In this document: positions 7,577-23,663 of the stretch, piece after piece
Layout of the letters: each line of letters begins with the position of its first letter
Numbering within the stretch: the first letter of the stretch is position 1
Assembly: GCA_021828865.1 (NCBI GenBank)
Contig: JAJZCW010000012.1
Coordinates: 1 to 24,000, forward strand
Direction: 5' to 3'
Source of the DNA: Bacillota bacterium
GTDB taxonomy: Bacteria > Bacillota > Bacilli > Alicyclobacillales > SLC66
Length of the DNA stretch: 24,000 nt
Translations under genes and position numbers: made by a program
The notes under the pieces: generated by a model
Told to the model about the DNA's origin: nothing
The model's input: the letters and a program-made list of their open reading frames with translations, nothing else
Databases searched by the model: none

Positions 7577-7608
7577 GCTGCATAACGGGAAACTGTTACG
7601 TGCAGTTC
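7575..7608 (+). ncRNA. group II intron domain V (catalytic hairpin)
   Basis: GAGCTGCATAACGGGAAACTGTTACGTGCAGTTC. It has the AGC triad at positions 2-4, an 8-bp lower stem, a 2-nt CG bulge, a 6-bp upper stem and a GAAA tetraloop. It overlaps the IEP stop codon. Confidence 0.92.
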
Positions 7609-7738
7609 TGAGGGGGCGAGGGCACCGCAAGGTGCCTGAGCTACCCAGCCCGGAGTATACAGTGCGCCTATCTTTACTCATTTATTTCCATAATATGAAC
7701 TACTGTATTTTTGCGAGTAATTGAGTCGACAACGGATA

Positions 7739-7990: not shown

Positions 7991-8097
7991 CAGAAAGGTT
8001 AATCTTTGTTTGGACACTTTAAACAAGTCAATTTATGAGGAGTATACTAATCGGGAGGAAACACGACGCACCGAATTAAATGAAGGAGCAATTTGTA

Positions 8098-9156
8098 ATG
8101 CAAAAATATGATGAAGCACGAGAATTCATCTTGAAATGTTACCGTGAACTTGAAAAGAGTGTTGAGGAAACTCAAGACAGATTAGCCGTAATCAAAGAAA
8201 GCTTGATGCAAAAAGCTACGTACGAGCTTACATACGAAGAATTGGAACATGGTGCGAGAATGGCATGGAGAAATAGCAATCGCTGTATTGGGAGATTGTT
8301 TTGGAAGTCACTAAACGTTTTTGATGAGAGACATCTGACAAAGGCCAGTGAGATGGTAAAAGCTCTTTATCGTCATATTGAGTTTGCTACGAACGAAGGA
8401 AAGATACGACCTACAATTACCGTGTTTAATCCAAGGATGCGTATTTGGAACCATCAACTTATCCGTTATGCCGGTTATGAGACCAAGCGGGGTATTATCG
8501 GCGATCCGCATTCGGTTGCGTTTACGCGTGTCTGTGAAGAATTGGGCTGGAGCGGCAAACGGACGCCGTTTGATGTTCTGCCACTAGTCGTTCAAATCAA
8601 TAGTGAGCAACCAGTTTGCTTTTCCATTCCTGATGAATTGATTTTGGAAGTTGATATCCATCACCCATATTATCCCCAATTTGAAGAGTTAGGGCTTAAG
8701 TGGTACACCGTTCCCATGATTGCAGATATGGCGTTAGAAATAGGGGGACTTCGATTTTCGGCAGCCCCATTTAATGGCTGGTATATGGAAACGGAAATCG
8801 GGGCTCGTAACTTTGCAGATGTCACTCGCTACAACATGTTGCCGAAGGTGGCGTCACTAATAGGACTCGACACTAAATCGGACGCGTCATTATGGAGAGA
8901 CAGGGCTCTCATCGAACTAAACATTGCTGTCTTACAGTCATTTAAGAAAAGTGGCGTAACTATCGTTGATCATCATACTGCTGCCAAGCAGTTTGGACGG
9001 TTTGAGCAGACTGAAATGGACGTGGGGCGTGAACTTACGGGAGACTGGACTTGGTTGATTTCCCCAGTTTCTCCGTCGACCACACACATTTTTCATCGAC
9101 ATTACGATAACAAAGTGGTGAAGCCTAACTACTCTCAACAAGAAAACCCCTTTTGA
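8098..9156 (+). CDS. nos: bacterial nitric oxide synthase, oxygenase domain only
   Basis: Heme-thiolate loop [13 protein letters not shown], substrate-binding [16 protein letters not shown], and DHHTAA...TGDWTWL. It is colinear with B. subtilis NOS as I recall it. I prefer the ATG at 8098 because AAGGAG (8083-8088) lies 9 nt upstream. The track ORF opens at 8080. Confidence 0.96.
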
Positions 9157-9370: not shown

Positions 9371-12300
9371 GTGGCCAATAAAGTGCATTCAACTGATGAT
9401 CAAGCTTTACTTGAAAAAACCACAAAGTGGTTTCAATATTCGCGTGGTAATGAAATTATGCTTGCTGCTCGCGAGTTAATTTGTGAGTTTGAATTGGCGG
9501 ATACTGGTTTTTTTCTTTATCAAAAGCGTTTGGGTAATGATGGGTCATCACAACCAGTTCAGGCTTACCATCCCTGGGGATATTTTGCTAATTATCCACA
9601 CTTGGAAGACTTGCTATTATTCGAGGGATTGGAAGACTTTGTAATACCAATAAGAATTTGGTTAAAATTATCAGATAGCCTTCTATTTTCTAGTATAGCG
9701 TCTTTGCCACTTGCTTATGTTGGTATTTGGCCAATCACCTCAATGGATGGAAATAAGGGGGCAATTGTGCTTGGTAAAAATTCCGCTTTTATAAAAGATG
9801 AGATTACGTTGATAGAAGATGCACGCTTGATCAATATGTGTGCCTATCAGATTTCCAATGCTATGAATAGCATGTTTGCAACACGAAAGATTGAGCTAGC
9901 CAATCAGGCATTGCAAGAACGAATACAGATCCAATCCCGATTGGAAGAGGAACTGCGCATTAGCAAGGATTTTCATCATTTGCTTTCGCTTGTAAGGGGA
10001 GTAACAAATGATGAAAATAACGAACTTTCCATATTGGAACAAATTTGTGACTTAACATCTCATTATTGCGGTTGTTTGACTACCTGGATTATGTGTCCAA
10101 ATGTTGAAGGATGGTTTCAGGTTCTCGCCAGCGCCGGTGAAACAGGTTTCTTGAATGAGGTGCGGTTCTCCGTGAGAGCAGATGTGCCAGAAGGGAAAGG
10201 GATGGCAGGATTGACCTGGCGTACAGGACAGCCAATGTTTAATCTTGACATAGAGAAGGACCCGTTATGGGCACCATGGCGCAATCTTATCACTCATTAT
10301 GAGTTAAAACGTGCATCCTCCTTACCAATTTGGCGGGGTCCTGAAATCTGGGCGGTTCTGGTCATCACTTATCAAGAAATAACCGAGCTAAATGAAGAGC
10401 TGCAAAATTTACTTAAAGAATTAGCTGAAAGTATTTCTTTGGGGTTAACCCGTCTTGATCTATCACGAAAAAATCACGAATTACTCGCTGTGAACCAGAC
10501 ACTGGTAAGTGGAGCTTCAGCAGGGATTAGTATCGTTAAATATCCGGAACGGGTCTTTGAAGAAGTTAACCATCGGATGGTGGATATCTTTGGTGCGCAA
10601 TCTGAAGCGGACCTAGTAAACAAACCCACACGAGAGTTTTATGTCAACCAATTGGCATATGAGCAAGTAGCAGGGTTGGCAGAAAATGTGCTGCAGAATG
10701 GTTCTGGCGAGATGCGCGATGTCCCGTTTCGTAAAATGAACGGGTCAATTGTGTGGATCGACCTGCATGGCAATTCTGGAAGTGTAGCAATAAACGGGGT
10801 GCGGTTAGTCTGGACGTTTGTGGATGTAACGGAACGTCATCGATTGGAACAGTCTTTGCAACGGAGTCGGGAATTCCTTGCGTTACTTTCGCGTGCCAAT
10901 GAAGCCATTAATCAGGCAAATGATGAACATCATCTTTTCCAATTTATTTGTGAACTTGCTGTCAACAATGCCAACTTGAGTTTGGCATGGATCGGTCAAC
11001 CGGATGATGAAGGGTGGTTTTACTATCATGCGGTTTATGGGGCGACAGAGTATTTGCAAGGAACTCGAGTTTCGAACAGGGCAGAAGTTCCTGAGGGAAA
11101 CGGTCCAGCAGGGAAGGCCTGGCGTACGCAGGAGCCCGTATTTTTCGACTGGACACATAACATTCCTGATTTAGAGTACTGGATTGAACACGCATCGAAA
11201 TTTATGCTGCGAAGCAGTGCTGCACTACCTATTTTTCGAAGAGGGAAAGTATGGGGGATTTTTATTGTTTATCACGCTGAGGAAGAAGTATTTGATAATG
11301 ATTTGCAAAATATTCTAAACAAATTGGCTCAGGATTTAGGGTTTGGTCTAGACAGACTTGATTTGATGATGCAAGAAAGAAAGTCCAGTCATCTGAATAA
11401 TTTGTTGCTGAACAATCTGGACGCCGGCGTGGTGGTCGTTCGCTATCCGGAGCGGATTGTGGAACAGGTCAACCACACGATGTTAGAAATTTATAAAATA
11501 CCGATGGAAGATGATTTGCTAAATCACTCTATCCGTATCATTCATCCAGATGAAGAGTCTTTTCGTCAAGTTGGGGAGTCTATTGCTGGACAGTTGCAAA
11601 CTGGAGCAGTCAAATTTACGGATATTTTGCGCAGGCGCTATGATGATACTTTGATATATGTGGATCTATCCGGACAGAGACTGGATCTCGGCGACGGCGT
11701 TGAGCGCATGATCTGGACACATCTAGATGTGACGGAACGTCACCAACGTGAACAAGAGATTCTCATACTGAGTCAGCAGAAATCATTGTTGCTTGATAAT
11801 ACGCTCGCCGGTATTAATGTGGTCCAGTATCCGGAACGGGTGATCACAGAAGCGAACCAACGATTTGCAGAGTTAATGGGGTTTGACCAACCGGGTGAAG
11901 TTATTGGCATGCCAACTGTAAAGGTATATCCCAATGAATTTGAGCACCAGCGTATGACTGAGCTCTCCCATACCGTAGTGGAACAGGGGCAGGGATTCTT
12001 AAATGACATCATTGTACGTAACCCTGATGGCAGACAAAGATACATAGATATTGAAGGGAAACTTTTGCATGGAGATACGATTCATTTCTCCATTCTATGG
12101 ACAACAGTTGATGTCACAGAACGTCATCGACACTTAGAGAATTGGATGAGAGAAGCGAGAATGCGTCTTAATTTGATCAATCATATGGCTATTGGCGTTT
12201 TTATTATTAGCCCAGATCGAGCGATTTTAAATGTGAATCACAGAATCACAGAATTATTTGGTTATGAAGAAGAGGAAGTTATTGGGGAAAGCACTCGTAT

Positions 12301-13294
12301 TTTATTTGATTCTGAAGAACAATTTTTGCAATTTGGGAAATTTTATCATCAATTGGAAGAGAGTAAAAAGGGAATGGTTAACTTGCAACAGATCTTTCAA
12401 AAAAAAGACGGGACATTATTCGTGGCGGATGTGACGGGGGCTTGGTTAGATCCTGATGAACCCTTACAGGGTGTGATTGGAACGATCCAAGATATATCAG
12501 ATAAACTTGCTTTAGAGAGAGAAGTAAATGAGCATCATGAAAAAATGAAGCATGAATTGGAACTTGCTTCACACTTACAAGGAGCTTTTTTACCTCAACA
12601 CTTGCCTACCATCAAAGGGATCCATGTAACTTGGGAATATATTCCATCCAATTATTTAGCGGGGGATATGATCAATGTGATGATGATTGATGATTCTCAC
12701 CTAGCATTTTATATTTTGGATGTCATGGGTCACGGAGTATCGGCAGCGTTGAATGCATTTGCCATTAACTATTTTATTCGATCATCAGGAACTAATAGTG
12801 CAGAGAACTATGCGTTGAATCCGGGCAAATTACTCACCGAATTAAATACAAAATTTAGTGATTATTATTTGACAGAATCATACTTCACTATGTTTTATGG
12901 TATTCTTAACCTCTCAATGAATCTTTTAACCTATGCCAAAGGAGGCCACCCCTCGCCATTGTTGTTGCACAACAATGGCGAGGCGGAATTTTTGGATCAA
13001 GGAGAAATTCCACTTGGAATTATGGTGGATATCCATTATCAAAACTATCAAGTGTCACTACTACCCGACGACAAATTATTGATTTATTCAGATGGCCTGA
13101 CGGAAATGATGAATGAGCAAAACGAGATGTACTCCGTTCAACGTGTAATGGATGTGATGATGCAGAATAAGGACCATACGATTCAACAAGTGATAAAGAA
13201 ACTGCTTGATCATCTGAGGGAATTCTCAGGTTTGAGTAAATGGAACGATGATGTGTCGTTAATAGGGATAGAGACGATAACGGATGAGAAATAA
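9371..13294 (+). CDS. cytoplasmic multi-sensor protein: GAF-like, coiled coil, GAF-PAS, GAF-PAS, PAS, PAS, then SpoIIE/PP2C-type serine phosphatase
   Basis: 1307 aa with no hydrophobic transmembrane stretch. Approximate domain map in nt: GAF 9968-10465, PAS 10484-10840, GAF 10868-11365, PAS 11393-11755, PAS 11768-12130, PAS 12143-12505, PP2C 12563-13276. PP2C motifs: AGDMINV, LDVMGHGVSAAL, YSDGLTE, NDDVSLIG. The start is uncertain: GTG at 9371 has no clear RBS, and alternatives are GTG 9383 or ATG 9458. Confidence 0.9.
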   Translation: MANKVHSTDDQALLEKTTKWFQYSRGNEIMLAARELICEFELADTGFFLYQKRLGNDGSSQPVQAYHPWGYFANYPHLEDLLLFEGLEDFVIPIRIWLKLSDSLLFSSIASLPLAYVGIWPITSMDGNKGAIVLGKNSAFIKDEITLIEDARLINMCAYQISNAMNSMFATRKIELANQALQERIQIQSRLEEELRISKDFHHLLSLVRGVTNDENNELSILEQICDLTSHYCGCLTTWIMCPNVEGWFQVLASAGETGFLNEVRFSVRADVPEGKGMAGLTWRTGQPMFNLDIEKDPLWAPWRNLITHYELKRASSLPIWRGPEIWAVLVITYQEITELNEELQNLLKELAESISLGLTRLDLSRKNHELLAVNQTLVSGASAGISIVKYPERVFEEVNHRMVDIFGAQSEADLVNKPTREFYVNQLAYEQVAGLAENVLQNGSGEMRDVPFRKMNGSIVWIDLHGNSGSVAINGVRLVWTFVDVTERHRLEQSLQRSREFLALLSRANEAINQANDEHHLFQFICELAVNNANLSLAWIGQPDDEGWFYYHAVYGATEYLQGTRVSNRAEVPEGNGPAGKAWRTQEPVFFDWTHNIPDLEYWIEHASKFMLRSSAALPIFRRGKVWGIFIVYHAEEEVFDNDLQNILNKLAQDLGFGLDRLDLMMQERKSSHLNNLLLNNLDAGVVVVRYPERIVEQVNHTMLEIYKIPMEDDLLNHSIRIIHPDEESFRQVGESIAGQLQTGAVKFTDILRRRYDDTLIYVDLSGQRLDLGDGVERMIWTHLDVTERHQREQEILILSQQKSLLLDNTLAGINVVQYPERVITEANQRFAELMGFDQPGEVIGMPTVKVYPNEFEHQRMTELSHTVVEQGQGFLNDIIVRNPDGRQRYIDIEGKLLHGDTIHFSILWTTVDVTERHRHLENWMREARMRLNLINHMAIGVFIISPDRAILNVNHRITELFGYEEEEVIGESTRILFDSEEQFLQFGKFYHQLEESKKGMVNLQQIFQKKDGTLFVADVTGAWLDPDEPLQGVIGTIQDISDKLALEREVNEHHEKMKHELELASHLQGAFLPQHLPTIKGIHVTWEYIPSNYLAGDMINVMMIDDSHLAFYILDVMGHGVSAALNAFAINYFIRSSGTNSAENYALNPGKLLTELNTKFSDYYLTESYFTMFYGILNLSMNLLTYAKGGHPSPLLLHNNGEAEFLDQGEIPLGIMVDIHYQNYQVSLLPDDKLLIYSDGLTEMMNEQNEMYSVQRVMDVMMQNKDHTIQQVIKKLLDHLREFSGLSKWNDDVSLIGIETITDEK

Positions 13295-13742
13295 TCGTTC
13301 CATCGCAATTGTGGGGAATAGAGGTAAAAGCAAAAGAGATTACTTTTCGAATTATTTATTGGTGTACCTAAGTACTTAGTGCTTAATGAATAATCTGAAA
13401 TCCCTTTTGTTTAATAAACCTTTTCCTTCATTTGTCGAATTAAAGTGTAATGTGCATGAAATTTGAGGTTTATCGCTAAAAATCATGCACATAGAGAGTT
13501 CATCTTGTGCCATCATTCGTGAGTAATTAATTTTGAAAAAATACCGTCTATTATTCGGGGTGGGGGGTAGTGCAACATAAGAAGTATTTAACGCTTTTTT
13601 CTAAAATGGGCATTTTAGCAACAATATTTTCCAAAAGATCCATATCTTAATCCAATACAGACATGCGTTTATCCGTTAAAGCCTAGAAATATTTAGGATA
13701 ATTAAGGAATTTAATCTATTTTAATGAAACCTTCTAACGGGA

Positions 13743-13771
13743 TTGACAATCCTGTGAGTTGGATATATTGT
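13743..13771 (+). promoter_or_regulatory. candidate promoter of the SDR/FAD-oxidase/kinase/GlpP operon
   Basis: TTGACA at 13743-13748. The -10 is either TATATT (13764-13769, 15-nt spacer) or TATTGT (13766-13771, 17-nt spacer). Confidence 0.4.
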
Positions 13772-13776
13772 TGAAT

Positions 13777-13841
13777 AAATTACTAGTGACGAGAGAAAAG
13801 TAATTTCCTTAATTGGATTTTGCTTTTCTCTCATTTTTTTT
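13777..13841 (+). promoter_or_regulatory. transcription attenuator: mutually exclusive antiterminator and terminator hairpins in the operon leader
   Basis: Terminator: GAGAGAAAAG (13791-13800) pairs perfectly with CTTTTCTCTC (13823-13832), followed by ATTTTTTTT. Alternative hairpin: AAATTACT (13777-13784) pairs perfectly with AGTAATTT (13799-13806). This consumes part of the terminator 5' arm. Confidence 0.6.
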
Positions 13842-13904
13842 AAATTCAAAGTTAAATTTTAAGTCGAAAAGAAGGTGTGTATCATTAATATTCAAGAATT
13901 CACT

Positions 13905-14663
13905 ATGGATTTTTTTTCGCTGAAAGGGAAAAACGCGATTGTCACAGGTGGTAATACTGGTTTGGGACAAACCTTTTCATTAGCATTAGCAAAAGCCGGG
14001 GCTAATGTGTTTATTCCCAGTTTAATGGAGGATGATGGTACTACTCAATCGATGATTGAAAATGAAGGCGTAAAAATGGCGTTTATGAAAACGGATATCA
14101 CTACAGAAGGGGAACCTGCAAAAATCATCCAAAACTGCGTAGACACTTTTGGGTCTGTTGATATTTTGGTAAACAGCGCCGGAATATCTATTAATGAACC
14201 TGACGTACTTAAGTTTGGCCGTAGCCAATGGGATAAGATGTTCAGTATTAATTTAACTGCCGCTTTCGAATTAAGTCATGAAGCGGCTAAAAAAATGATC
14301 CCTCAACGAAGTGGGAAAATCATTAATATTGGCTCTTTGTTTTCTTATCTGGGTGGGCAATGGTCTCCTGCATATGCTGCTACCAAACACGGAATGTTGG
14401 GATTCACAAGAGCTTATTGCGATGAACTTGCTCAATTTAACATTCAAGTGAATGGCATAGCGCCAGGGTATTATGCAACCGCATTAACTGCTAAAACGAG
14501 AAATGATCCAGTAGCCAACCAAAGAGTGCTGGATCATATACCAGCAAACCGTTGGGGTGAGACGCAAGATTTAATGGGTACTGTTGTTTTTCTAGCAAGC
14601 AAAGCTTCCGACTATGTTAATGGTCAAATGATCGTTGTTGATGGCGGATATTTGGTAAGATAA
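13905..14663 (+). CDS. SDR family oxidoreductase, KduD (2-dehydro-3-deoxy-D-gluconate 5-dehydrogenase)-like
   Basis: FSLKGKNAIVTGGNTGLGQ, NSAG, intact YAATK catalytic motif, and the DYVNGQMIVVDGGYLVR tail. It is colinear with E. coli KduD as I recall it. I prefer the ATG at 13905. The track ORF opens at GTG 13875. Confidence 0.85.
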   Translation: MDFFSLKGKNAIVTGGNTGLGQTFSLALAKAGANVFIPSLMEDDGTTQSMIENEGVKMAFMKTDITTEGEPAKIIQNCVDTFGSVDILVNSAGISINEPDVLKFGRSQWDKMFSINLTAAFELSHEAAKKMIPQRSGKIINIGSLFSYLGGQWSPAYAATKHGMLGFTRAYCDELAQFNIQVNGIAPGYYATALTAKTRNDPVANQRVLDHIPANRWGETQDLMGTVVFLASKASDYVNGQMIVVDGGYLVR

Positions 14664-14694
14664 GAATTTTAGTAAAAATGAGGAGAGTGTATTC

Positions 14695-16137
14695 ATGAAA
14701 ATAGAACGGAATCAAATCGTTGAAAAGTTAATTCAAATTGTCGGCAATCAGCGAGTCATCACAGATGAACAAGTATTAAAAGACAGCAGTTTTGATCGTT
14801 TTAGAAAGTATGAAGGATATCATCACATTTACACGCAACCAATTCCTTCTGCTCTGGTTTATGTGAAAAGTGCTCAAGAGGTATCGGAGATTTTGCAGTT
14901 TGCAAACGATAATCACATCAATGTGGTACCGAGAACTGGCCATTCGGCAACAGAAGGGGGCTTGGAAACTGCTGTTGAAAACACGATTATCATTGACGGG
15001 TCTAAAATGAATAATATTGTAAAAATCGATACGTATAATATGCAGGCAACCTGTCAATGCGGTGTCTCGCTTCAAGTATTAGACGATCTATTAAGAGAGC
15101 AGGGATATACGACCGGGCATTCACCGCAATCAAAGCCACTGGCTCAAATGGGCGGACTGGTTGCAACAAGGAGTATAGGGCAATTTTCCACTTTATACGG
15201 CGGTATAGAAGATATGGTAGTAGGTGTTGAAGCGGTTTTTCCAAACGGAGAAATCGCAAAGATTAAAAACGTGCCTAGAAGGGCCGCTGGGCCAGATATA
15301 AGACATGTTGTCATTGGGAATGAAGGTGCTCTTTGCTACATCACTGAAGTAACAGTGAAAATATTTAAATTTATGCCAGACAATAATGTTTTTCTAGGGT
15401 TTACATTGGATCATATGAAAACAGGCTTTGAAATTCTTCGCGAAGTAATGGTTAATGGATATAAACCATCAGTTGCACGACTGTACGATGTGGAAGATGG
15501 TGCTTATCACTTTTCTCATTTTGCAAAGGACAAATGTGTCCTGATATTTATGGCAGAAGGGCCTAAAGGGATTACTGAAGCGACCGCGAAAGCAATTGAA
15601 GAGATTGTAAGTAGATATGATGAATGCAAAAAAGTGGAGGATCACTACATCAAAGAATGGTTTGATGACTTAAATTGGGATCCTAAAAAAATCGAAGAAG
15701 AAAAAGTGGAGATTTTAGAAACGAAAAATGTGGGTAATACGACTGAAGTATCATCTAATTGGGGTAAAATTATCGATATTTACCAAGTGTGCATCGAACG
15801 GATTCGCAAGGAAATCCCGGATATCACCATGGTTGGCGCGCATTCTTCCCACAGCTACCTAAACGGCACTAATTTGTATTTTGTGTATTATTATGATGTT
15901 AATTGCAAACCTGAAGAAGAAATTTCCAAATATCACCTGCCAATCAAGAAAATTATTGTTGAAGAGACTCTAAATGCGGGTGGTTCTATGTGTCATCATC
16001 ATGGTGTAGGTAAACATAGGGCTCCATGGATTCAAGAGGAGTACGGGAGTTCTTACTATATTTTAGAAACATTGAAAAAGGCGTTTGATCCTAATGGGAT
16101 CATGAATGCTGGTACTATTATTCCTATCAAGAAGTAG
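14695..16137 (+). CDS. FAD-binding oxidoreductase, VAO/PCMH fold (GlcD / alkyl-DHAP-synthase-like)
   Basis: 480 aa. FAD_binding_4-type VVPRTGHSATEGG and GPDIRHVVIGNEGALCYITEVTVKI. C-terminal HHHGVGKHRAPW and AFDPNGIMNAG. GAGGAG RBS at 14679-14684. Confidence 0.85.
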   Translation: MKIERNQIVEKLIQIVGNQRVITDEQVLKDSSFDRFRKYEGYHHIYTQPIPSALVYVKSAQEVSEILQFANDNHINVVPRTGHSATEGGLETAVENTIIIDGSKMNNIVKIDTYNMQATCQCGVSLQVLDDLLREQGYTTGHSPQSKPLAQMGGLVATRSIGQFSTLYGGIEDMVVGVEAVFPNGEIAKIKNVPRRAAGPDIRHVVIGNEGALCYITEVTVKIFKFMPDNNVFLGFTLDHMKTGFEILREVMVNGYKPSVARLYDVEDGAYHFSHFAKDKCVLIFMAEGPKGITEATAKAIEEIVSRYDECKKVEDHYIKEWFDDLNWDPKKIEEEKVEILETKNVGNTTEVSSNWGKIIDIYQVCIERIRKEIPDITMVGAHSSHSYLNGTNLYFVYYYDVNCKPEEEISKYHLPIKKIIVEETLNAGGSMCHHHGVGKHRAPWIQEEYGSSYYILETLKKAFDPNGIMNAGTIIPIKK

Positions 16138-16161
16138 CAAGGGTAAGGATGGGCATTTACG

Positions 16162-17595
16162 ATGAAGAACAAGTACATTATTGGGGTTGACAACGGTTCT
16201 ACCAGTTCAAAAATTGTTATCTTTGACCTGGAAGGGAATGTAATATGTGAAGCAAAAGAGGACTTAAGGCCAATGCACTTGGAAACTCTTGGAGTGGTGG
16301 AGCATCCTGATGATGACTTATGGGATAGCATTAAAGCAGCGAGTCATAAGGCCATGAGCAAATTTTCAGGAAATAAGGAAGACATTATCGGACTGGGACT
16401 ATGTACGATTCGGTGTTGTAGAGTGTTATTAAAGGGAGATGGCTCATTAGCCTCTCCCGTTATGAGTTGGATGGATGCGCGTTTGGCAAGGCCCTATGAA
16501 CATAAAGACTCATCCGTAAAATACGTGACGACGACATCAGGTTACATTACCTTTCGATTGACAGGCGAATATCGTGATACAGCAGCCAATTATGAAGGGG
16601 AATGGCCAATAGATAAGGACCGATGGCAATGGAGTGAGGACCAGGAGGTATTAAAAAAATACAATATTCCAAGGGAAATGTTATTTGATCTGCAAATGCC
16701 AGGTGAAATTTCTGGTTATGTGACGAAAGAAGCAGCAGAAGCGTTAGGAATTCCCGCTGGGATTCCTGTTGTTGCCACTGCGAATGATAAGGCGGTGGAA
16801 GCCCTTGGTGCCGGACTTGCTCGCGATCATTCGGCTTTAATATCCCTTGGTACTTATATTGGTGGAATGGTTAACGGGTATGCCAACGTAAAAGACACTG
16901 TTTCAAGCTTTAGCAACATGGCCTCAATTCCCCATCGCTATTTGTTTGAAAGTTATGGGATACGAAGAGGAATGTGGACTGTGAATTGGATCAAAGAGTT
17001 GTTTGGAGATGAGATCTTATTAAAGGCAAATGCAGTGGGAATGACACCAGAAGAATACCTTAGTGAAAAAGCGGAAAAGGTTCCCGCGGGTAGTGAAGGA
17101 CTCATCACCATTTTAGACTGGTTGGCGCCAACGGACAAACCATATCGAAAAGGTGTCATGCTTGGATTTGATGGCCGCCACTCAAGGGAACATATGTTTC
17201 GATCAATTTTAGAAGCTATTGCGTTAACGATGAAAAATCACATCGATCAGATGTGTCAAGAATTGAATATTGAACTTGAAAACATTATTGTATCAGGAGG
17301 GGGATCAAACAGTCGCTTAATGATGCAAATTGTTGCCGATGTTTTTGAGCTTCCTACGTATAGAAATCTCGTGAACGGGTCTGCCAGTTTGGGAGCAGCA
17401 ATTTGCGTAGCGGTGGCATTAGGATTTTATGAAGACTTTGAGACTGCAATTAGTAAGATGGTAAAGGTCAGAGACTACTTTATGCCGATTCCCAGCAATG
17501 TAGCATTATATAAAAGAATGAATCAAGAACTCTACCAAAACATCACATCATATACTGATGAAGTTTTGAAACTTTCTTATCCTATATTCGGATAG
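16162..17595 (+). CDS. FGGY-family carbohydrate kinase
   Basis: 477 aa. N-terminal phosphate-1 motif IIGVDNGSTSSKIVIFD. C-terminal VSGGGSNSRLMMQIVADVF. Confidence 0.9.
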   Translation: MKNKYIIGVDNGSTSSKIVIFDLEGNVICEAKEDLRPMHLETLGVVEHPDDDLWDSIKAASHKAMSKFSGNKEDIIGLGLCTIRCCRVLLKGDGSLASPVMSWMDARLARPYEHKDSSVKYVTTTSGYITFRLTGEYRDTAANYEGEWPIDKDRWQWSEDQEVLKKYNIPREMLFDLQMPGEISGYVTKEAAEALGIPAGIPVVATANDKAVEALGAGLARDHSALISLGTYIGGMVNGYANVKDTVSSFSNMASIPHRYLFESYGIRRGMWTVNWIKELFGDEILLKANAVGMTPEEYLSEKAEKVPAGSEGLITILDWLAPTDKPYRKGVMLGFDGRHSREHMFRSILEAIALTMKNHIDQMCQELNIELENIIVSGGGSNSRLMMQIVADVFELPTYRNLVNGSASLGAAICVAVALGFYEDFETAISKMVKVRDYFMPIPSNVALYKRMNQELYQNITSYTDEVLKLSYPIFG

Positions 17596-17627
17596 CGAGA
17601 TGAGTAAAGCTCTTCTCAGGAGGCGCT

Positions 17628-18191
17628 ATGGGCAATCGTTTAATGACTATGTTTGAGGAAAATCCTATTATTGCGGCGATCAAAGACCAAACAGGACTTG
17701 CGTCCGTACTCAAATGTGATTGTAAAATTGTGTTTGTACTTTATGGAAACGTTCTAAATATAGTGGATATCGTACAACAGTTAAAAAGCCGGGATAAGAT
17801 GGTGTTCGTCAATATTGATCTCATTGACGGATTCTCGAGTAAGGAGATTGTCATAGAACTATTGAAAAGGGATACACAAGCGGACGGTGTACTCAGTTCC
17901 AAAGCCGGTATGATTAAGGCAGCAAAAGCACATGGATTCTACACGATACACAGACTATTTATCATTGATTCGTTTTCTTTTGATAACATTGAGAAGCAAG
18001 TGAGCCTATCTGAGCCTGATGCCCTGCAAATACTACCAGGTTGGCCGAAATTGATAACCTGGACAAAAGATAAAATTAGGATTCCCATCATTACTGGTGG
18101 TTTGATTTGTGCAAAAGAAGATGTAGTAGCGGCGCTTGGTGCCGGGGCAATGGCAATTTCCTCCACCAACGCGGATGTTTGGAATTTATAA
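17628..18191 (+). CDS. GlpP-family (glycerol-3-phosphate-responsive type) transcription antiterminator
   Basis: 187 aa, colinear with B. subtilis GlpP as I recall it: PIIAAIKD, IDLIDGF, HRLFIIDS, ILPG, ITGGLI, AGAMAISSTNADVWN. AGGAGG RBS at 17619-17624. Confidence 0.85.
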   Translation: MGNRLMTMFEENPIIAAIKDQTGLASVLKCDCKIVFVLYGNVLNIVDIVQQLKSRDKMVFVNIDLIDGFSSKEIVIELLKRDTQADGVLSSKAGMIKAAKAHGFYTIHRLFIIDSFSFDNIEKQVSLSEPDALQILPGWPKLITWTKDKIRIPIITGGLICAKEDVVAALGAGAMAISSTNADVWNL

Positions 18192-18211: not shown

Positions 18212-18994
18212 CTAATCGTTGATTTTATTGGTAATCTCATTGGCAATTTCAATGACAAGCGGCGCAAATGAATCGATCAAATCTTTAGGTAGTCGAAATG
18301 ACGGGCCGGACAAGCTGACAAACGCGATCGTATTGCCATGGACATCGTGTACTGGCGCGGAAAGCCCATTTTCACTTTCATCGAATTCAAGATATGAAGT
18401 GGCAAAACCACGATGTTTAATTTTCTCAATTTCTAATTTTAATATTTCTGGGTCTGAATTTGTCCATGCCGTTCTTTTTTCCATGGGATGTTTAAGGAAG
18501 TTATTTAGTTCAATCTCTGAAAGAGATGCTAATAATAATTTTCCATTTGAAGTGCAATGAAGTGGTAAAACCATATTGACGTAATCAACCAATCGTACGT
18601 GGTGCGGTGGGTCGATTTGATCAATGGCTACCACACCGTAATTATAAGCGACACTTAACATGACTGTTTCCTGAGATACCTGCGCCAATCGCTCAAGACT
18701 TGGCCGGGCTTGCCTAACCAACCAGTCATTTCGGGAGGTTCCCAAGCTTAATTTGGTAGCCCAAAAACCAAGTCGATATCCTTTTGTTAATTGTTCTCGC
18801 TCTATGAATCCATGATATTCCAAAGTATATAATAATCTCCATGCAGTTGTCCTGTTTAGATGAGTTTCATTGATGATATCTGTCAGTGAAACAGGATCAT
18901 TTGCTTTCGCGATATATTTTAATAAAATTAGAGCTTTATCTAACGTTTGCACCAATCCATCAGCTTTTTGATCAATTTCTATCTTGTTCACCAT
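18212..18994 (-). CDS. IclR family transcriptional regulator
   Basis: 260 aa. N-terminal winged HTH (LDKALILLKYIAKANDPVSLTDIINETHLNRTTAWRLLYTLEYHGFIE) followed by an IclR-type effector domain (GLSAPVHDVHGNTIAFVSLSGP). Confidence 0.92.
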   Translation of the reverse strand: MVNKIEIDQKADGLVQTLDKALILLKYIAKANDPVSLTDIINETHLNRTTAWRLLYTLEYHGFIEREQLTKGYRLGFWATKLSLGTSRNDWLVRQARPSLERLAQVSQETVMLSVAYNYGVVAIDQIDPPHHVRLVDYVNMVLPLHCTSNGKLLLASLSEIELNNFLKHPMEKRTAWTNSDPEILKLEIEKIKHRGFATSYLEFDESENGLSAPVHDVHGNTIAFVSLSGPSFRLPKDLIDSFAPLVIEIANEITNKIND

Positions 18995-19063
18995 CTAGCA
19001 GTAACATCTCCTTTAATTTATTTTATCACGAAAAGTGAGTAAAAAAAATTTTCTGAAATATCA

Positions 19064-19146
19064 TTGACATAATATCTGAATTCGCATTATTATATTCGCA
19101 TAGTGAAATACATGTTCATTATACGAACATAATAGATTTTAATCAA
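19064..19146. promoter_or_regulatory. divergent iclR / adh-ABC control region with repeats
   Basis: + strand: TTGACA (19064-19069), an 18-nt spacer, then TATTAT (19088-19093). - strand: TTGATT (complement of 19141-19146), a 17-nt spacer, then TATAAT (complement of 19118-19123). Direct repeat ATTCGCAT at 19080-19087 and 19094-19101. Inverted repeat ATGTTC-N7-GAACAT at 19112-19130. TGAA-N7-TTCA at 19104-19118. Confidence 0.5.
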
Positions 19147-19222
19147 TGTTTTCTTTGTGCGAGGGGAATGGGGCCAAGACGAAGATAGTCCCCAGTGCAA
19201 GATTGCTGAAGGAGAGAGTATC

Positions 19223-20329
19223 ATGAAGGTTCGGGCAGCGGTTCTTTACGAAGAAAATAAACCACTTGAGATCAAAGAAGTTGAACTTTTACCTCCTGGA
19301 GAGCATGAGGTGCTTGTGAAGTTAAGTGCAAGCGGTGTTTGTCATAGTGATCTGTCGTCTGCAACGGGCAAGAGTCCGACGAAGTTACCTGCCATATTGG
19401 GACATGAAGGGGCCGGTGTGGTAGAGCAAGTTGGCCCTGGGGTTACGAATGTAAAACCAGGAGATCACGTAGTTCTATCTTGGAATCCTGATTGTGGTGA
19501 ATGTGATGAATGTAATCGTGGCCTTCCTCACCTTTGTTCCAATGCGTGGAATGGAATGTTTGCTGGAGGATTACTCGATGGAACTTCTCGTTTTCGACTT
19601 GATGGAGAAGAAATTTTCCACTATTCGATGGTTTCATCTTTTGCAGAAAAAGTGGTTGTGCCTGATCGTTCATGTGTAGTGATAAATCAAGATGTTCCCC
19701 TTGAAATCGCTTCCTTGGTGGGATGTGCAGTGACTACTGGTGTAGGAGCTGTATGGAATACTGCCCAAGTTCGCCCCGGTGACCGAATTGCAGTTTTCGG
19801 GTGTGGAGGAGTGGGATTGAGTGCTGTACTAGGCGCCATTGCAGTCGGTGCGTCCCAAATTATTGTGGTAGATACAAGAGCTGATAAATTAGAAACTGCG
19901 CTTCACATGGGGGCAACTGATGCGGTTCAATCGACTGGCACTCCCGAAGAAACTGCTGCAGAAATCCTTCGCTTATCAAACGGTGGGGTCGATTATGCTT
20001 TTGATGCCGTAGGGGCACCTAATGTCACACTTAGCGCTTATTTATCGACTCGTAAGCGAGGAGCGGCAGTGGTGATTGGTATTCCTGCTCAAGATGCTGT
20101 AGTACCAATTCCCGCATTATCTATTCCACGGATGGAACGGAGAATTCTCGGCAGTCTTTATGGATCCGCTTCGCCTAGACGGGATTTTCCATTGATTTTA
20201 GACTTATTCATGCGTGGCAGGTTACCGCTTGATAAATTGATTTCTCACCGGTTAAGACTTGATGATGCACAGCATGCTATGGATCTTGTGAAAGATGGTG
20301 CTGCAGTCCGAGCTGTACTTCAGTTCTAA
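19223..20329 (+). CDS. zinc-dependent alcohol dehydrogenase (MDR family, class III-like)
   Basis: GVCHSD, GHEGAGVVEQVG, structural-Zn loop CGECDECNRGLPHLC, and NAD fold GCGGVGLS. I prefer the ATG at 19223, with GAAGGAGAG at 19208-19216. The track ORF opens at 19157. Confidence 0.92.
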   Translation: MKVRAAVLYEENKPLEIKEVELLPPGEHEVLVKLSASGVCHSDLSSATGKSPTKLPAILGHEGAGVVEQVGPGVTNVKPGDHVVLSWNPDCGECDECNRGLPHLCSNAWNGMFAGGLLDGTSRFRLDGEEIFHYSMVSSFAEKVVVPDRSCVVINQDVPLEIASLVGCAVTTGVGAVWNTAQVRPGDRIAVFGCGGVGLSAVLGAIAVGASQIIVVDTRADKLETALHMGATDAVQSTGTPEETAAEILRLSNGGVDYAFDAVGAPNVTLSAYLSTRKRGAAVVIGIPAQDAVVPIPALSIPRMERRILGSLYGSASPRRDFPLILDLFMRGRLPLDKLISHRLRLDDAQHAMDLVKDGAAVRAVLQF

Positions 20330-20360
20330 TCTGAAACTTAACGATAGGAAGTGAAGAGTG

Positions 20361-21452
20361 ATGACAGTAACTTTTTCGGAAGTGACAAAGGTTTATCAAG
20401 GGAAGAAACCCGCTGTTGAGAATTTGAATTTAGAGGTGCACACCGGGGAACTTCTCGTTCTAATCGGGCCTTCCGGTTGTGGGAAAACGACGACGTTAAG
20501 GATGATCAACCGTCTGGAAGAACCTACACATGGAAAGATACAGATCGATGGACGAGATATAGAAAAATTTAAAGAAGAGGAACTACGTAGAGGAATAGGT
20601 TATACCGTTCAGCAAACAGGATTATTCCCCCATATGACTGTCAAGGACAATATTGAAGTCGTTCCGAGGTTGTTGAAATGGCCAAAAGATAAGCGGGATG
20701 AGAGAGTTCGTGAGTTGCTTGCGATGGTTAATATGGATTTTGAAGAGTTTGCCCATCGATATCCAAGGCAACTGTCGGGGGGACAACAACAGCGTATTGG
20801 AGTTTTACGTTCTTTAGCTGCAGATCCTCCCATTATTTTAATGGATGAGCCTTTCGGAGCCCTTGATCCTATTAGCCGTGAGGTATTGCAAATTGAATTA
20901 AAGAAACTACAAGCACGTCTCCAGAAAACGATTATTTTCGTGACACATGACATCGACGAGGCGATACGTTTAGGAGATCGAATAGCCATATTCCAAACTG
21001 GCCAATTGGTTCAATTAGGTTCACCGCAAGAAATTGTCAAGAACCCTGTAAATGAATTTGTGGCTTCGTTTATCAAGAAAAACTATCAATTTGAAACTTC
21101 TAACCTTTCTTTGAAAGCGCTTGATCTGGCAAGTGTTGACTTTCACCCCTACGAATCGCATGATGACCGAATCATTTTGAGCATTGATGGTTCAGATGAT
21201 TTTTACCTGGTGGATTCTGATCATCGTTTTATTGGGACGATAAGCAAAGAAAACGTCAAGGCGAATCAGATCACAGCGGATAAAGTTCTGCAGCCAATAA
21301 GAGTTTACGATTCTGTTCAAAATATTTTATCTATTTTCAAAGATGTGAATACGCTACCTGTGGTGGATGATGGCAATAAATTGGTGGGCGTGATTACCTC
21401 CCTTTCGCTGATGAATGCAGTAGCTCGATTAGTCGGAGGGAATGAATCATGA
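20361..21452 (+). CDS. ABC transporter ATP-binding protein, OpuC/OpuB (osmoprotectant/quaternary amine) type with a C-terminal CBS pair
   Basis: Walker A GPSGCGKTT, signature LSGGQQQRIG, Walker B IILMDEPFGALD, and a CBS-like C-terminus (LPVVDDGNKLVGVIT). The start is ATG 20361 or the adjacent GTG 20358. Confidence 0.93.
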   Translation: MTVTFSEVTKVYQGKKPAVENLNLEVHTGELLVLIGPSGCGKTTTLRMINRLEEPTHGKIQIDGRDIEKFKEEELRRGIGYTVQQTGLFPHMTVKDNIEVVPRLLKWPKDKRDERVRELLAMVNMDFEEFAHRYPRQLSGGQQQRIGVLRSLAADPPIILMDEPFGALDPISREVLQIELKKLQARLQKTIIFVTHDIDEAIRLGDRIAIFQTGQLVQLGSPQEIVKNPVNEFVASFIKKNYQFETSNLSLKALDLASVDFHPYESHDDRIILSIDGSDDFYLVDSDHRFIGTISKENVKANQITADKVLQPIRVYDSVQNILSIFKDVNTLPVVDDGNKLVGVITSLSLMNAVARLVGGNES

Positions 21453-22090
21453 ACTATATTGGTTATTTATGGAGTACCTATAATAGCCAAATTATTCAAG
21501 CTATGTGGCAGCAGATTTATCTTGTTGGCATTTCATTAGTTTGCGGTGCGATTGTATCTATCCCTTTGGGAATTTATTTGTCAAAGCACACGCGTCTCGC
21601 TACATGGGTGATCACCGCAGTTTCCATTCTACAAACCATCCCAAGTCTTGCTTTTTTCGCAATTATATTGCCGATATTAGGAATCGGAGCCACACCGGCA
21701 TTAATCGTCTTATTTCTTTATTCGCTCTTGCCGATGCTTCGCAATACCTATACGGGACTGAGGTCGGTCGATCCCACGTTGATCGATGTTGCAAAAGGCA
21801 TGGGTATGACCTCATTTCAACGTCTTATCTTTGTTGAACTGCGATTAGCTGCGCCTTTGATTGTTGCTGGAATACGTTTGTCAACGATTTATTTGGTGAG
21901 TTGGGCAACGATGGCCTCGCTAATTGGGGCTGGCGGCTTCGGTGACTTGATATTTGCAGGAATTGATAATTATAACAATGATCTTATCATTACTGGAGCA
22001 GTGCCCACTGCATTGATGGCGTTCATTGCAAGCATGATTTTCACCCTTATTCGTCGTTACGTGACGCCGATTGGATTAAGGAGGGCATAA
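21449..22090 (+). CDS. ABC transporter permease (OpuCB-like)
   Basis: 213 aa, multi-pass hydrophobic protein with an EAA-type loop (VDPTLIDVAKGMGMTSFQRLIFVELRLA). Its ATG overlaps the upstream stop (ATGA), which suggests translational coupling. Confidence 0.9.
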   Translation: MNYIGYLWSTYNSQIIQAMWQQIYLVGISLVCGAIVSIPLGIYLSKHTRLATWVITAVSILQTIPSLAFFAIILPILGIGATPALIVLFLYSLLPMLRNTYTGLRSVDPTLIDVAKGMGMTSFQRLIFVELRLAAPLIVAGIRLSTIYLVSWATMASLIGAGGFGDLIFAGIDNYNNDLIITGAVPTALMAFIASMIFTLIRRYVTPIGLRRA

Positions 22091-22092
22091 GC

Positions 22093-22698
22093 ATGACCGT
22101 TACCTTTTCAGATATTTTATCTGCTTCATTTGTTCATCTGTATTTGTCGCTAATCGGAACGTTTGCTGGCGGGTTGATAGGGTTTATCGTTGCTGTTCTT
22201 GGAAGAAATCACGCGAGGATTCTCACTGTCTTTTTAACAATTGCTGAATTAATTCAAACCTTCCCCAGTATTGCCATGTTGGCTCTACTATTGCTTGTTT
22301 TTGGTTTGGGAAACAACACGCTCATTGTAGCGCTTGCGTTATACGGAATTATGCCAGTTTTACAGAACACCTATGAAGGGTTAAGTGCAGTGGACCCCAT
22401 GTTGATTGACGTGGGAAGAGGCATGGGAATGACAAAAAGGCAGGTGTTGCGTCGAGTAGAATTACCGTTGACATTTCCAATGATTTTGGCGGGCTTTCGT
22501 GTGTCATTGGTGACTTCCATTGGTATTGCTACGATTGGTGTATTTGTGGGATCTGGAGGTTTGGGGCTTTTTATTTATCGAGGATTACAAATGCTCGATA
22601 ACCAAATTATGCTTGAGGGGGCGGTTCCGGCTGCGATTCTTGCTATTTTAGTTGAATTACTCATTGGACTTTTGGAAAGGCGCCTGGCCAAGCGTTGA
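22093..22698 (+). CDS. ABC transporter permease (OpuCD-like)
   Basis: 201 aa, a paralog of the previous permease (VDPMLIDVGRGMGMTKRQVLRRVELPL). AAGGAGG RBS at 22078-22084. Confidence 0.9.
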   Translation: MTVTFSDILSASFVHLYLSLIGTFAGGLIGFIVAVLGRNHARILTVFLTIAELIQTFPSIAMLALLLLVFGLGNNTLIVALALYGIMPVLQNTYEGLSAVDPMLIDVGRGMGMTKRQVLRRVELPLTFPMILAGFRVSLVTSIGIATIGVFVGSGGLGLFIYRGLQMLDNQIMLEGAVPAAILAILVELLIGLLERRLAKR

Positions 22699-22733
22699 CA
22701 AAAGCAAAGTAAAATCACACACCAAAAAGGGAG

Positions 22734-23663
22734 ATGTTAAATGTGAACAAGAAACCTCTGCTTTGGACTTTAGCTGCATCAATGGGTGCCGCCATGATTC
22801 TCGCTGGTTTTTCACAAAATGGTCATGCTTTTGCTAGTAGCAAACCTCCCATCATTGTAGGGTCAAAAAGTTTTACAGAAAACATCTTAATCGGCGACAT
22901 GATGTATGATCTGTTGAAAGCGAATTTGCCAGGCGTGCAAGTGATTAATAAACAAGACCTTGGCGGTACTATGGTTCCTTGGAATGCACTGTTGTCTGGC
23001 CAGATTGATATGTACTGCGAGTACACTGGCACAGGCCTGATTGATATTCTGAAGCAACCAGTGATGCATAATCCTAATGCAGTTTACAATTATGTAAAAA
23101 AAGAATATCCTGTAAAATTTAAGGTAGATTGGTTAAAACCAATCGGATTTAATGACACCTATGCGATTGCAATGCCACAAGCATTAGCGAAAAAAGACCA
23201 TGTCACCACTATTTCTGACCTTTCTAAAGTTGCCAATCAATTGGTATTTGGAGCTGAGCCTGAATTTTTCAGCAGACCTGACGGATATCCTGGTTTGGTG
23301 AATGATTATGGCCTTCATTTTAAGTCTACCAGCCAGATTAACGTAGGATTGAAGTATGAAGCGGTGGCTAAAGGGGATGTTCAGGTCATCGATGTTTTCT
23401 CAACAGATGGAGATCTGGTGAAATATCACATGGTGGTTCTAAAGGATAACAAAAACTTCTATCCACCATATTTTGCTGCACCCATTGTAAGGGAAGACAT
23501 TATCAAAGCCTACCCCAAAATTCCGTCAATTTTGAATAAACTGGCAGGTAAGATTTCTAATGAGCAAATGCAGCAACTGAATTATTCAGTCGATGTTCTG
23601 CACAAGAGCGCAAGTGTAGTAGCGAAAAACTTCTTGATTAGCAAAGGCTTACTGAAGAAGTAA
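22734..23663 (+). CDS. OpuAC-family substrate-binding protein (glycine betaine/carnitine/choline-type)
   Basis: 309 aa with an N-terminal signal sequence. EYTGTG, NDTYAIAMP, FSTDGDL, NFYPPYFAAPIVRE and QQLNYSVD match OpuCC-like proteins as I recall them. GTG at 22743 is better spaced from AAAGGGAG (22726-22733) than ATG at 22734. Confidence 0.88.
   Translation: MLNVNKKPLLWTLAASMGAAMILAGFSQNGHAFASSKPPIIVGSKSFTENILIGDMMYDLLKANLPGVQVINKQDLGGTMVPWNALLSGQIDMYCEYTGTGLIDILKQPVMHNPNAVYNYVKKEYPVKFKVDWLKPIGFNDTYAIAMPQALAKKDHVTTISDLSKVANQLVFGAEPEFFSRPDGYPGLVNDYGLHFKSTSQINVGLKYEAVAKGDVQVIDVFSTDGDLVKYHMVVLKDNKNFYPPYFAAPIVREDIIKAYPKIPSILNKLAGKISNEQMQQLNYSVDVLHKSASVVAKNFLISKGLLKK

Follow-up and report, generated by a model that had tools for sequence, protein, structure and literature searches.

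A four-gene operon with a leader RNA

The window analyzed here is a 24,000-nucleotide stretch from a Bacillota bacterium (contig JAJZCW010000012.1, positions 1 to 24,000 of the forward strand). Positions 13905-18191 contained four plus-strand open reading frames (ORFs) separated by gaps of 24-32 nt and preceded by a conserved leader RNA. The first ORF (13905-14663) encoded a KduD-like short-chain dehydrogenase/reductase (SDR), the orthologue of Escherichia coli YgcW (72% identity; Pfam adh_short_C2, E 4e-51). Its start is uncertain, with an alternative GTG at 13875 that would give ten extra N-terminal residues, as in E. coli YgcW. The second ORF (14695-16137) encoded a flavin adenine dinucleotide (FAD)-linked flavoenzyme, the orthologue of YgcU (65% identity; Pfam FAD_binding_4, E 7e-35, and FAD-oxidase_C, E 2e-20), belonging to the alkyl-dihydroxyacetone phosphate (alkyl-DHAP) synthase-like branch of the VAO/GlcD superfamily. 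The third ORF (16162-17595) encoded an FGGY-family carbohydrate kinase, not a glycerol kinase, the orthologue of YgcE (54% identity; FGGY_N, E 2e-22; FGGY_C, E 4e-21). The fourth ORF (17628-18191) encoded a GlpP-family protein, the orthologue of YgcP (49% identity), which covered the whole Pfam G3P_antiterm (PF04309) profile (1-173 of 173; E 3e-57) and is a putative antiterminator for the leader at 13774-13839. All identities are over full length.

None of the four proteins reached an NCBIfam equivalog cut-off. A first-pass annotation, made from the letters of the window, had listed an SDR, an FAD_binding_4 flavoenzyme, an FGGY kinase and a GlpP-family protein at these positions, and the ORFs and Pfam matches bear this out. 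Its labels 'KduD-like', 'not plain glycerol kinase' and 'VAO/alkyl-DHAP-synthase/GlcD-like' were accurate in view of the sub-threshold NCBIfam scores, and its treatment of the four genes as a single unit distinct from the glycerol regulon is supported. On balance we consider it probable, with some reserve, that the four genes make up a single operon for the breakdown of a small hydroxylated compound, equivalent in Bacillota to the ygcW-ygcU / yqcE-ygcE / ygcP system of E. coli.

Orthology to the E. coli ygc cluster and distribution of the cassette

In E. coli K-12 the corresponding cluster is ygcW-ygcU-ygcS-ygcR-ygcQ, yqcE-ygcE and ygcN-ygcO-ygcP (b2766-b2776). All four window proteins have their orthologues there. 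The E. coli region also encodes an electron-transfer flavoprotein (ETF) pair (ygcQR), a FixCX-like pair (ygcNO) and two major facilitator superfamily (MFS) transporters (ygcS and yqcE). In contrast, the window holds a single compact four-gene operon, and counterparts of YgcQR, YgcNO, YgcS and YqcE were absent among its ORFs. The cassette therefore mapped to the ygc cluster, which is without an assigned function in the searched literature, and not to a characterized pathway. No functional study of any ygc cluster gene was found in the searched full-text literature; ygcE appeared chiefly as a neutral integration site, and ygcU was termed only 'FAD-binding oxidoreductase' in a 2026 paper (PMC13012123).

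Homologues of the flavoenzyme number in the thousands, the best 120 of which were 72-79% identical and came from Bacillota, Anaerolineae, Deltaproteobacteria and others. A genome scan with one genome per species yielded 62 loci. The SDR, kinase and flavoenzyme occurred together in most of these, across five phyla: cassette loci were found in Clostridia, Bacillales, Lachnospiraceae, Spirochaetota, Desulfobacterota, Actinomycetota and Gammaproteobacteria. Core-gene counts were taken from a tblastn table, because clustering by ORFs makes wrong gene calls in high-GC loci, in which ORFs on the antisense strand are preferred. By its sequence relationships the cassette is a widespread, known but uncharacterized unit and not a local oddity, a point that the first-pass annotation had missed.

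Neighboring genes were clustered across 66 sources, namely the 62 loci of the scan, E. coli, the window and two other loci. ETF alpha and beta genes, always directly after the flavoenzyme gene, were present in 33 and 29 sources, respectively, YqcE-like MFS transporters in 26, RpiR-type HTH+SIS regulators in 23, BCCT transporters in 17, OpuA/OpuC-type ABC components (binding protein or permease) in 14, GlpP-like proteins in 13, and MttB-superfamily methyltransferases and a second, GlcD/LctD-type flavoenzyme in seven each. A BCCT or Opu-type component lay within 10 kb in 31 of the 66 sources. No aldolase, isomerase or epimerase recurred among the clustered neighbors, and neither did acyltransferase or reductase genes. 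The GlpP-like gene was absent from approximately three quarters of the cassettes, which kept all three enzymes and often had an RpiR-type regulator instead; the GlpP-like protein thus appears dispensable for catalysis. RpiR-type regulators are a family known for sensing phosphosugars.

Structure and conservation of the leader

The leader was preceded by a sigma-70-type promoter-like site on the plus strand (TTGACA-17-TATTGT; 13743-13771), a consensus match only, at 10 of 12 positions. The loci L002 and L064 (loci are numbered as in the comparison) contained TTGACA-17-TATATT at the equivalent position relative to the leader. The promoter-like site would place the transcript start just before the RTTACY element of the leader.

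The leader itself (plus strand, 13774-13839), defined by a covariance model and by folding, is a candidate YgcP/GlpP-type antiterminator target. Its first helix, P1, pairs 13778-13784 with 13799-13805 around the GA-rich loop AGUGACGAGAGAAA. An intrinsic terminator consists of a hairpin at 13791-13832 (13791-13808 with 13815-13832) followed by T8 at 13834-13841; it folded at -24.6 kcal/mol (z = -6.5), and 0 of 200 shuffled sequences folded as well. The 3' strand of P1 is part of the 5' arm of the terminator, making the two structures mutually exclusive. P1 alone amounted to -1 to -7 kcal/mol versus about -24 for the terminator; being this weak, it would need a protein to stabilize it. The leader that the first-pass annotation had cited at 13777-13841 is therefore real, with both a promoter-like site and a stable terminator hairpin.

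Upstream regions of the GlpP-containing loci gave the consensus RTTACY-AGAGN-N2-4-GAGAGAAAAGTAAY-(variable hairpin)-CTTTTCTCT-T6-8, in which P1 pairs RTTACY with RGTAAY. Among 17 distinct copies, 94% of the cells of the terminator helix were paired and 8 of its 17 pairs showed compensatory changes, well above shuffled and slid controls. For P1, 96% of cells were paired, against 16-58% in slid controls, and one pair alternated between A-U and G-C (9:8).

A covariance model (R1) was built from eight leader copies and searched against the 66 sources (1.1 Mb). It scored 76.8 bits in the window (E 1e-14, filters off), the only convincing copy there. Every R1 match at E up to 1 came from one of the 13 sources with a gene for a GlpP-like protein; the 53 others gave none. 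Twelve of the 13 had a match below E 1e-4, and the thirteenth (L005) had one near E 0.01. No Rfam 15 family matched the leader at gathering thresholds in the window, and at E up to 1 the region 13290-13910 returned only a chance microRNA match.

A scan of metagenome contigs for exact matches to a pattern of the leader's 5' half gave 120 matching stretches, of which 80 loci were listed. These 80 loci contained 97 R1 matches at E up to 0.001, spread over nearly all of them; many were E. coli-like contigs.

Genes preceded by the leader

The leader marks a regulon. Seed-independent copies lay directly upstream of BCCT genes in L065 (16413), L059 (6944), L064 (5501) and L002 (5248). Other copies preceded OpuC-type ABC operons (L030, 8061; L028, 8217; also L077), MFS genes (L061, 10859; L005, 9582) and MttB-family genes (L003, L132 and L138), and an MttB gene was co-operonic in L066 and L128. 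The L003 operon (leader at 13968) combined its MttB-family gene with OpuC-type components; it also held what we take, by eye, to be a PanB-like gene and a proline-racemase-like gene. Among 32 metagenome matches examined, some were followed by SDR, kinase, flavoenzyme and ETF genes, twice ending with an MttB-family gene, and others by an OpuC-type ABC operon, MttB genes or an MFS-kinase pair.

In E. coli (L001), the same leader RNA preceded both operons, ygcW-ygcU and the genes after them (15299-15367, minus strand) and yqcE-ygcE (15502-15568, plus strand). E. coli would accordingly have a GlpP-type antitermination regulon, of which, to our knowledge, none has been described so far. The two divergent copies occupied the ygcW/yqcE intergenic region (L001 15275-15592; about 2,900,274-2,900,591 of E. 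coli K-12 NC_000913.3). Between them lay a perfect CRP site (half-site pair), TGTGATCGTAATCACA, which would count in favor of a catabolic role. This ygcW/yqcE site ranked among the top CRP predictions in an earlier survey (PMC1794230).

A further, longer-looped leader copy lay between the kinase and flavoenzyme genes in L002 (9826-9913) and L059 (9792-9879). This intra-operon copy suggests a second antitermination checkpoint within the transcript.

A probable GlpP-type antitermination system

In Bacillus subtilis, GlpP together with glycerol 3-phosphate disrupts the terminators in the glpD, glpFK and glpTQ leaders (PMC9604022, PMC10573289). The glpD 5' untranslated region, taken from Table S4 of PMC9604022, contained a 14-nt GA-rich loop enclosed by a GGUC/GACC helix, which overlaps the terminator arm and runs directly into it. 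The window shares with the glp regulon a PF04309 regulator, a promoter followed by a short 5' helix with a GA-rich loop and an overlapping terminator, and a kinase paired with a flavoenzyme. It differs in that its kinase is not GlpK and its flavoenzyme has a fold unrelated to GlpD (FAD_binding_4, not DAO). Likewise, the ygc-type leader has its own conserved sequence (RTTACY...GAGAGAAAAGTAAY), and the ygc-type regulon reaches betaine-type transporters and MttB methyltransferases.

The conservation of the leader, the covariation of both helices and the co-occurrence with YgcP-like genes together give strong support to GlpP-type antitermination. By these comparisons the GlpP paralogue very probably acts on the leader at 13774-13839 as an antiterminator that depends on a ligand, in line with the first-pass annotation, which had proposed a GlpP paralogue acting on an upstream leader. 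Very probably, then, a GlpP-type antitermination system with its own conserved leader governs the uncharacterized ygc-type pathway. Transcription would start just 5' of 13778 and stop by default at the terminator (13791-13841). Once loaded with a pathway intermediate, the GlpP-family protein would bind the 5' helix and GA-rich loop (13778-13805); because P1 shares nucleotides with the 5' arm of the terminator, this binding would prevent termination, as B. subtilis GlpP with glycerol 3-phosphate does on the glpD leader. The earlier suggestion that a phosphorylated intermediate is the ligand is plausible: in most other genomes an RpiR-type regulator, of the phosphosugar-sensing family, takes the place of the GlpP-like gene.

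The three enzymes

The SDR found its best NCBIfam matches in the KduD models, yet stayed below their cut-offs (NF005390, 321 bits against 369; TIGR01832, 268 against 339). Its closest solved structures were KduD-type enzymes and gluconate 5-dehydrogenases. KduD and gluconate 5-dehydrogenases oxidize the secondary alcohol next to a terminal CH2OH. The kinase scored best against XylB (168 bits) and LsrK (156 bits), its nearest solved structure was LsrK, and it fell far short of the GlpK models (TIGR01311, 107 bits against a cut-off of 590; NF000756, 114 against 498). By these scores it is more like the ketose kinases XylB and LsrK than GlpK, and it did not prove to be a plain glycerol kinase.

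The closest solved relatives of the flavoenzyme were the alkyl-DHAP synthases (AGPS, also ADPS; EC 2.5.1.26) 4bby (mammalian, E 2e-46) and 2uuu (Dictyostelium, E 5e-44). Glycolate oxidase (E 1e-27), LctD (E 3e-24) and D-lactate dehydrogenase were well behind, and the GlcD model TIGR00387 gave 138 bits against an equivalog cut-off of 568. Beyond the shared FAD_binding_4 and C-terminal domains, AGPS R419, Y578 and H615-617 aligned with an Arg, a Tyr and an HHH of the window protein, and Thr568 was replaced by Ser. In AGPS, R419, Y578 and the HHH loop are catalytic. Of 44 full-length family members, 37 had the motif HHHG[VI]G and 43 the tyrosine motif G[TA][NCS][LMI]YF. The window protein has HHHGVG, whereas GlcD/LctD-type paralogues beside the YgcU-like gene in several loci have EHG[VI]G. 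The 480-residue window protein aligned with AGPS residues 204-653 only and lacked the approximately 200-residue AGPS N-terminal region. Its AlphaFold2 model was poor (mean predicted local distance difference test score 62), with a shallow alignment of 72-79% identical homologues.

The first-pass annotation had placed this flavoenzyme in the position of GlpD, and that assignment needs revision: the nearest solved relative is an alkyl-DHAP synthase whose Arg, Tyr and HHH are kept. With these residues retained, a 1-substituted DHAP-like keto-phosphate fits at least as well as a polyol phosphate, and the alignment suggests a DHAP-like keto-phosphate as the substrate. A dedicated ETF adjoined the flavoenzyme in about half of the loci; in anaerobes and in E. 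coli the flavoenzyme is coupled to an ETF of its own. The order flavoenzyme, ETF-beta, ETF-alpha in anaerobes, along with the superfamily, is shared with the LctD-EtfAB and GlcD dehydrogenases, which differ in giving much weaker matches and in having EHGxG in the true paralogues where the YgcU type has HHHGxG. Set against AGPS, the context of the window-type enzyme is catabolic, and the ETF linkage in many genomes implies a net redox step, which AGPS does not perform.

In L064 (13277-16527), L065 (13241-14782) and L006 (3151-9833), a second GlcD/LctD-type flavoenzyme (EHGxG) came right after the YgcU and ETF genes, in anaerobe loci sometimes with its own second ETF pair. Its substrate may be, for example, D-lactate or another 2-hydroxyacid made by the pathway.

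Proposed chemistry and substrate class

The enzymes suggest a route of three steps. The KduD-like SDR would oxidize the secondary alcohol adjoining a terminal CH2OH to a ketone, giving a hydroxy-ketone. The xylulokinase-like FGGY kinase would phosphorylate the terminal hydroxyl to a C1-substituted DHAP-like product. The AGPS-like flavoenzyme would then act on this keto-phosphate, either exchanging its C1 substituent or removing it oxidatively. On this AGPS-like scheme the ketone would be made by the SDR and not by the flavoenzyme. The product would lie at the triose-phosphate level without need of further dedicated enzymes; as no further enzymes recur beside the cassette, it is probably already a central metabolite at that level.

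BCCT and OpuB/OpuC-type systems transport compounds whose ammonium or sulfonium head group is fully methylated, and non-pyrrolysine MttB-family enzymes demethylate quaternary amines. Because betaine-type transporters and MttB are under the same leader in relatives of the window, a quaternary-ammonium head group is the most likely feature of the substrate. Tentatively, the substrate is probably not a plain polyol but a quaternary-ammonium compound that carries hydroxyl groups. The catabolic, non-glycerol route of the first-pass annotation stands; its substrate, a polyol or sugar alcohol, has to be revised in view of the leader copies upstream of BCCT, OpuC-type, MFS and MttB genes. The compound might combine a choline- or betaine-like group with a glycerol- or diol-type part. 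Deacylated betaine lipids and molecules akin to glycerophosphocholine are no more than possible examples, and no paper supporting a betaine-lipid (homoserine betaine) origin was found in the searched literature. The cluster-linked BCCT proteins were below every NCBIfam equivalog cut-off.

In Steroidobacteraceae loci, the BCCT, Opu and MttB-family genes adjoined ORFs that, by eye, are presumably sarcosine-oxidase-like and dimethylglycine-dehydrogenase-like. Some Clostridia (L034, L042, L050 and L052) contained, 3' of the kinase gene, a conserved 170-residue protein without an NCBIfam match, followed by a BCCT gene. In L052 (16835-20907) the BCCT gene was followed by genes that we take to encode a glycerol-dehydrogenase-like Fe-ADH and a SurE-like phosphatase; this operon phosphatase may dephosphorylate the product.

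A bolder proposal joins these parts into one scheme, which we regard as improbable as a whole. YgcU-type flavoenzymes would be catabolic cousins of AGPS that use flavin-N5 chemistry to detach a C1 choline- or betaine-type substituent (ether, phosphoester or C-N bond) from a DHAP derivative made by the SDR and kinase. Triose phosphate would be released. The onium compound, derived for example from glycerophosphocholine-like compounds or deacylated betaine lipids, would be exported or undergo MttB-type demethylation. In E. coli as elsewhere, the regulon as a whole would be switched by a new class of YgcP-bound leader RNA.

Alternative explanations

The PF04309 protein could instead be a pathway enzyme, such as a barrel-fold isomerase or aldolase, behind an ordinary attenuator or a metabolite-sensing riboswitch. 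NCBIfam has no model for the GlpP-like protein, and its solved relatives, 3kts (E 3e-24) and 1vkf, are, as we take them, compact single-domain proteins without a recognizable classical RNA-binding domain. A pathway enzyme would hardly be missing from some three quarters of the cassettes that keep all three other enzymes, nor does this reading fit a gene that co-occurs with the leader motif and occurs nowhere else in the sampled loci. At about 65 nt, with a loop of 14 nt, the leader would make a small aptamer for a metabolite, and for B. subtilis GlpP antitermination on a leader built in the same way has been established by experiment (PMC9604022). We consider an enzymatic role very unlikely. 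An alternative system for glycerol or glycerol 3-phosphate, with a glycerol kinase and a regulator that senses glycerol 3-phosphate, would explain the likeness to the B. subtilis glp regulon, both in the leader architecture and in the combination of kinase, flavoenzyme and GlpP-family protein. The kinase, however, reached 114 bits where the GlpK cut-off is 498, and it is nearer XylB and LsrK; the SDR and the transporter types would be left unexplained; and E. coli has the ygc cluster besides a complete glp regulon. Its probability is slighter still. Least credible is a true alkyl-DHAP synthase in an operon that makes ether lipids, to which we assign next to no weight. Such an enzyme would agree with AGPS as the closest solved relative, with the retained catalytic residues and with JGI, which annotates many homologues as alkyldihydroxyacetonephosphate synthase. 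It is at odds with the absent N-terminal region of about 200 residues, with the catabolic context (CRP site, sugar-type kinase, transporters and ETF) and with acyltransferase and reductase genes that do not recur.

The model of the first-pass annotation deserves more weight than these, though we think it unlikely. Here the kinase phosphorylates a plain polyol or sugar alcohol, and the flavoenzyme stands in for GlpD/GlpO and oxidizes the polyol phosphate to a ketose phosphate, with electrons passing to ETF, quinone or O2. The SDR is auxiliary, the polyol phosphate is the GlpP ligand, and a quaternary-ammonium group has no part. A true dehydrogenase fits the ETF alpha/beta pair directly 3' of the flavoenzyme in anaerobes and the ETF and FixCX-like genes in E. 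coli, and this ETF linkage keeps the GlpD-replacement model alive. Sugar-porter-type MFS proteins (YgcS, YqcE) are the commonest transporters, RpiR-type regulators are typically phosphosugar-sensing, and the window has no betaine transporter under the leader. A plain polyol gives no explanation, however, for the leader directly upstream of BCCT, OpuC-type and MttB genes in several lineages. To enter central metabolism, a C4-C6 polyol would require an isomerase, aldolase or epimerase, and none recurs; the flavoenzyme keeps AGPS-specific residues and not the EHGxG of the adjoining GlcD/LctD-type paralogues. The analogy behind the model is the Brucella/Rhizobium erythritol pathway, in which the FGGY kinase EryA is combined with EryB, a GlpD-like FAD dehydrogenase that acts on a polyol phosphate. 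The dehydrogenase of that pathway is of another fold, the pathway needs dedicated isomerases that are not recurrent beside the ygc-type cassette, and it has neither an antiterminator nor betaine-type transporters.

Several points weigh against the preferred reading, that of an antiterminated ygc-type operon for a hydroxylated quaternary-ammonium compound. That the GlpP paralogue binds RNA is putative, as is the identity of its ligand. For the substrate we offer a candidate class only, and the order in which the three enzymes act is one that we infer. The ETF genes adjoining the flavoenzyme argue for net electron transfer, whereas AGPS chemistry is redox-neutral, and the analogy is perhaps partial. 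E. coli and many other loci have MFS transporters only. The quaternary-ammonium link is weak in the window, where the operon has no transporter and an importer further downstream is possibly connected to it, by proximity only. The compared loci include close kin (Steroidobacteraceae metagenome-assembled genomes and E. coli metagenome contigs), and the raw counts overstate independence.

Neighboring genes in the window

Downstream of the operon, an IclR regulator gene on the minus strand (18212-18994) was divergent from a zinc-dependent alcohol dehydrogenase gene (19157-20329), both assigned by Pfam and NCBIfam. A complete OpuB/OpuC-type ABC importer followed, with the ATPase at 20358-21452, permeases at 21449-22090 and 22093-22698, and the binding protein at 22734-23663. 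The binding protein matched the choline-binding OpuBC scaffold (E 8e-75). The first-pass annotation had noted no transporter, which is right for the operon itself and not for its surroundings, as this importer lies 2.2 kb downstream and the leader precedes transporters in other genomes. No leader copy was found before the 18212-23663 module (R1 search, filters off), and the binding protein was only 29-39% identical to leader-controlled ones elsewhere; the importer was not taken up as a member of the operon. The alcohol dehydrogenase was class III/NDMA-type-like and stood directly before the four-gene importer, and the two may form a choline-like alcohol oxidation module in its own right.

Upstream, a group II intron occupied 5153-7649, with Rfam domains D1-D4 at 5153-5279 and domains 5-6 at 7573-7649. 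A 627-residue ORF inside it (5693-7576) is, by eye, presumably reverse transcriptase/maturase-like. We take the 358-residue product of 8080-9156 to be a bacterial nitric-oxide-synthase oxygenase-domain protein. This gene and the closest homologues suggest an O2-using host. ETF genes were absent from the window, and a dedicated ETF was likewise missing in Bacillales, actinobacterial and most gammaproteobacterial loci (tblastn table); use of O2 by the host may be the reason that the window has no dedicated ETF. Directly upstream of the operon, a 1307-residue ORF (9371-13294) contained repeated segments and is presumably a PAS/GAF sensor with a PP2C-type phosphatase domain. Between this gene and the promoter-like site lay approximately 450 nt of AT-rich DNA (13295-13740), in which no Rfam family matched and no ORF exceeded 46 codons.

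Implications for the ygc pathway

The ygc genes are a conserved E. coli K-12 cluster still without a function, and their orthologues occur in soil, marine, gut and sediment bacteria of at least five phyla. If the proposed mechanism is true, the leader would, as far as is known, be the first target of GlpP-type antitermination described beyond the glycerol regulon and the first in Enterobacteria. A regulon that reaches betaine/choline-type transport and corrinoid-dependent demethylation narrows the candidates for the substrate; a quaternary-ammonium substrate, if true, would bear on how microbes turn over choline- and betaine-type compounds, both in the gut and in the environment. The compact four-gene form, with a leader RNA that marks its regulon, makes the ygc pathway experimentally tractable.

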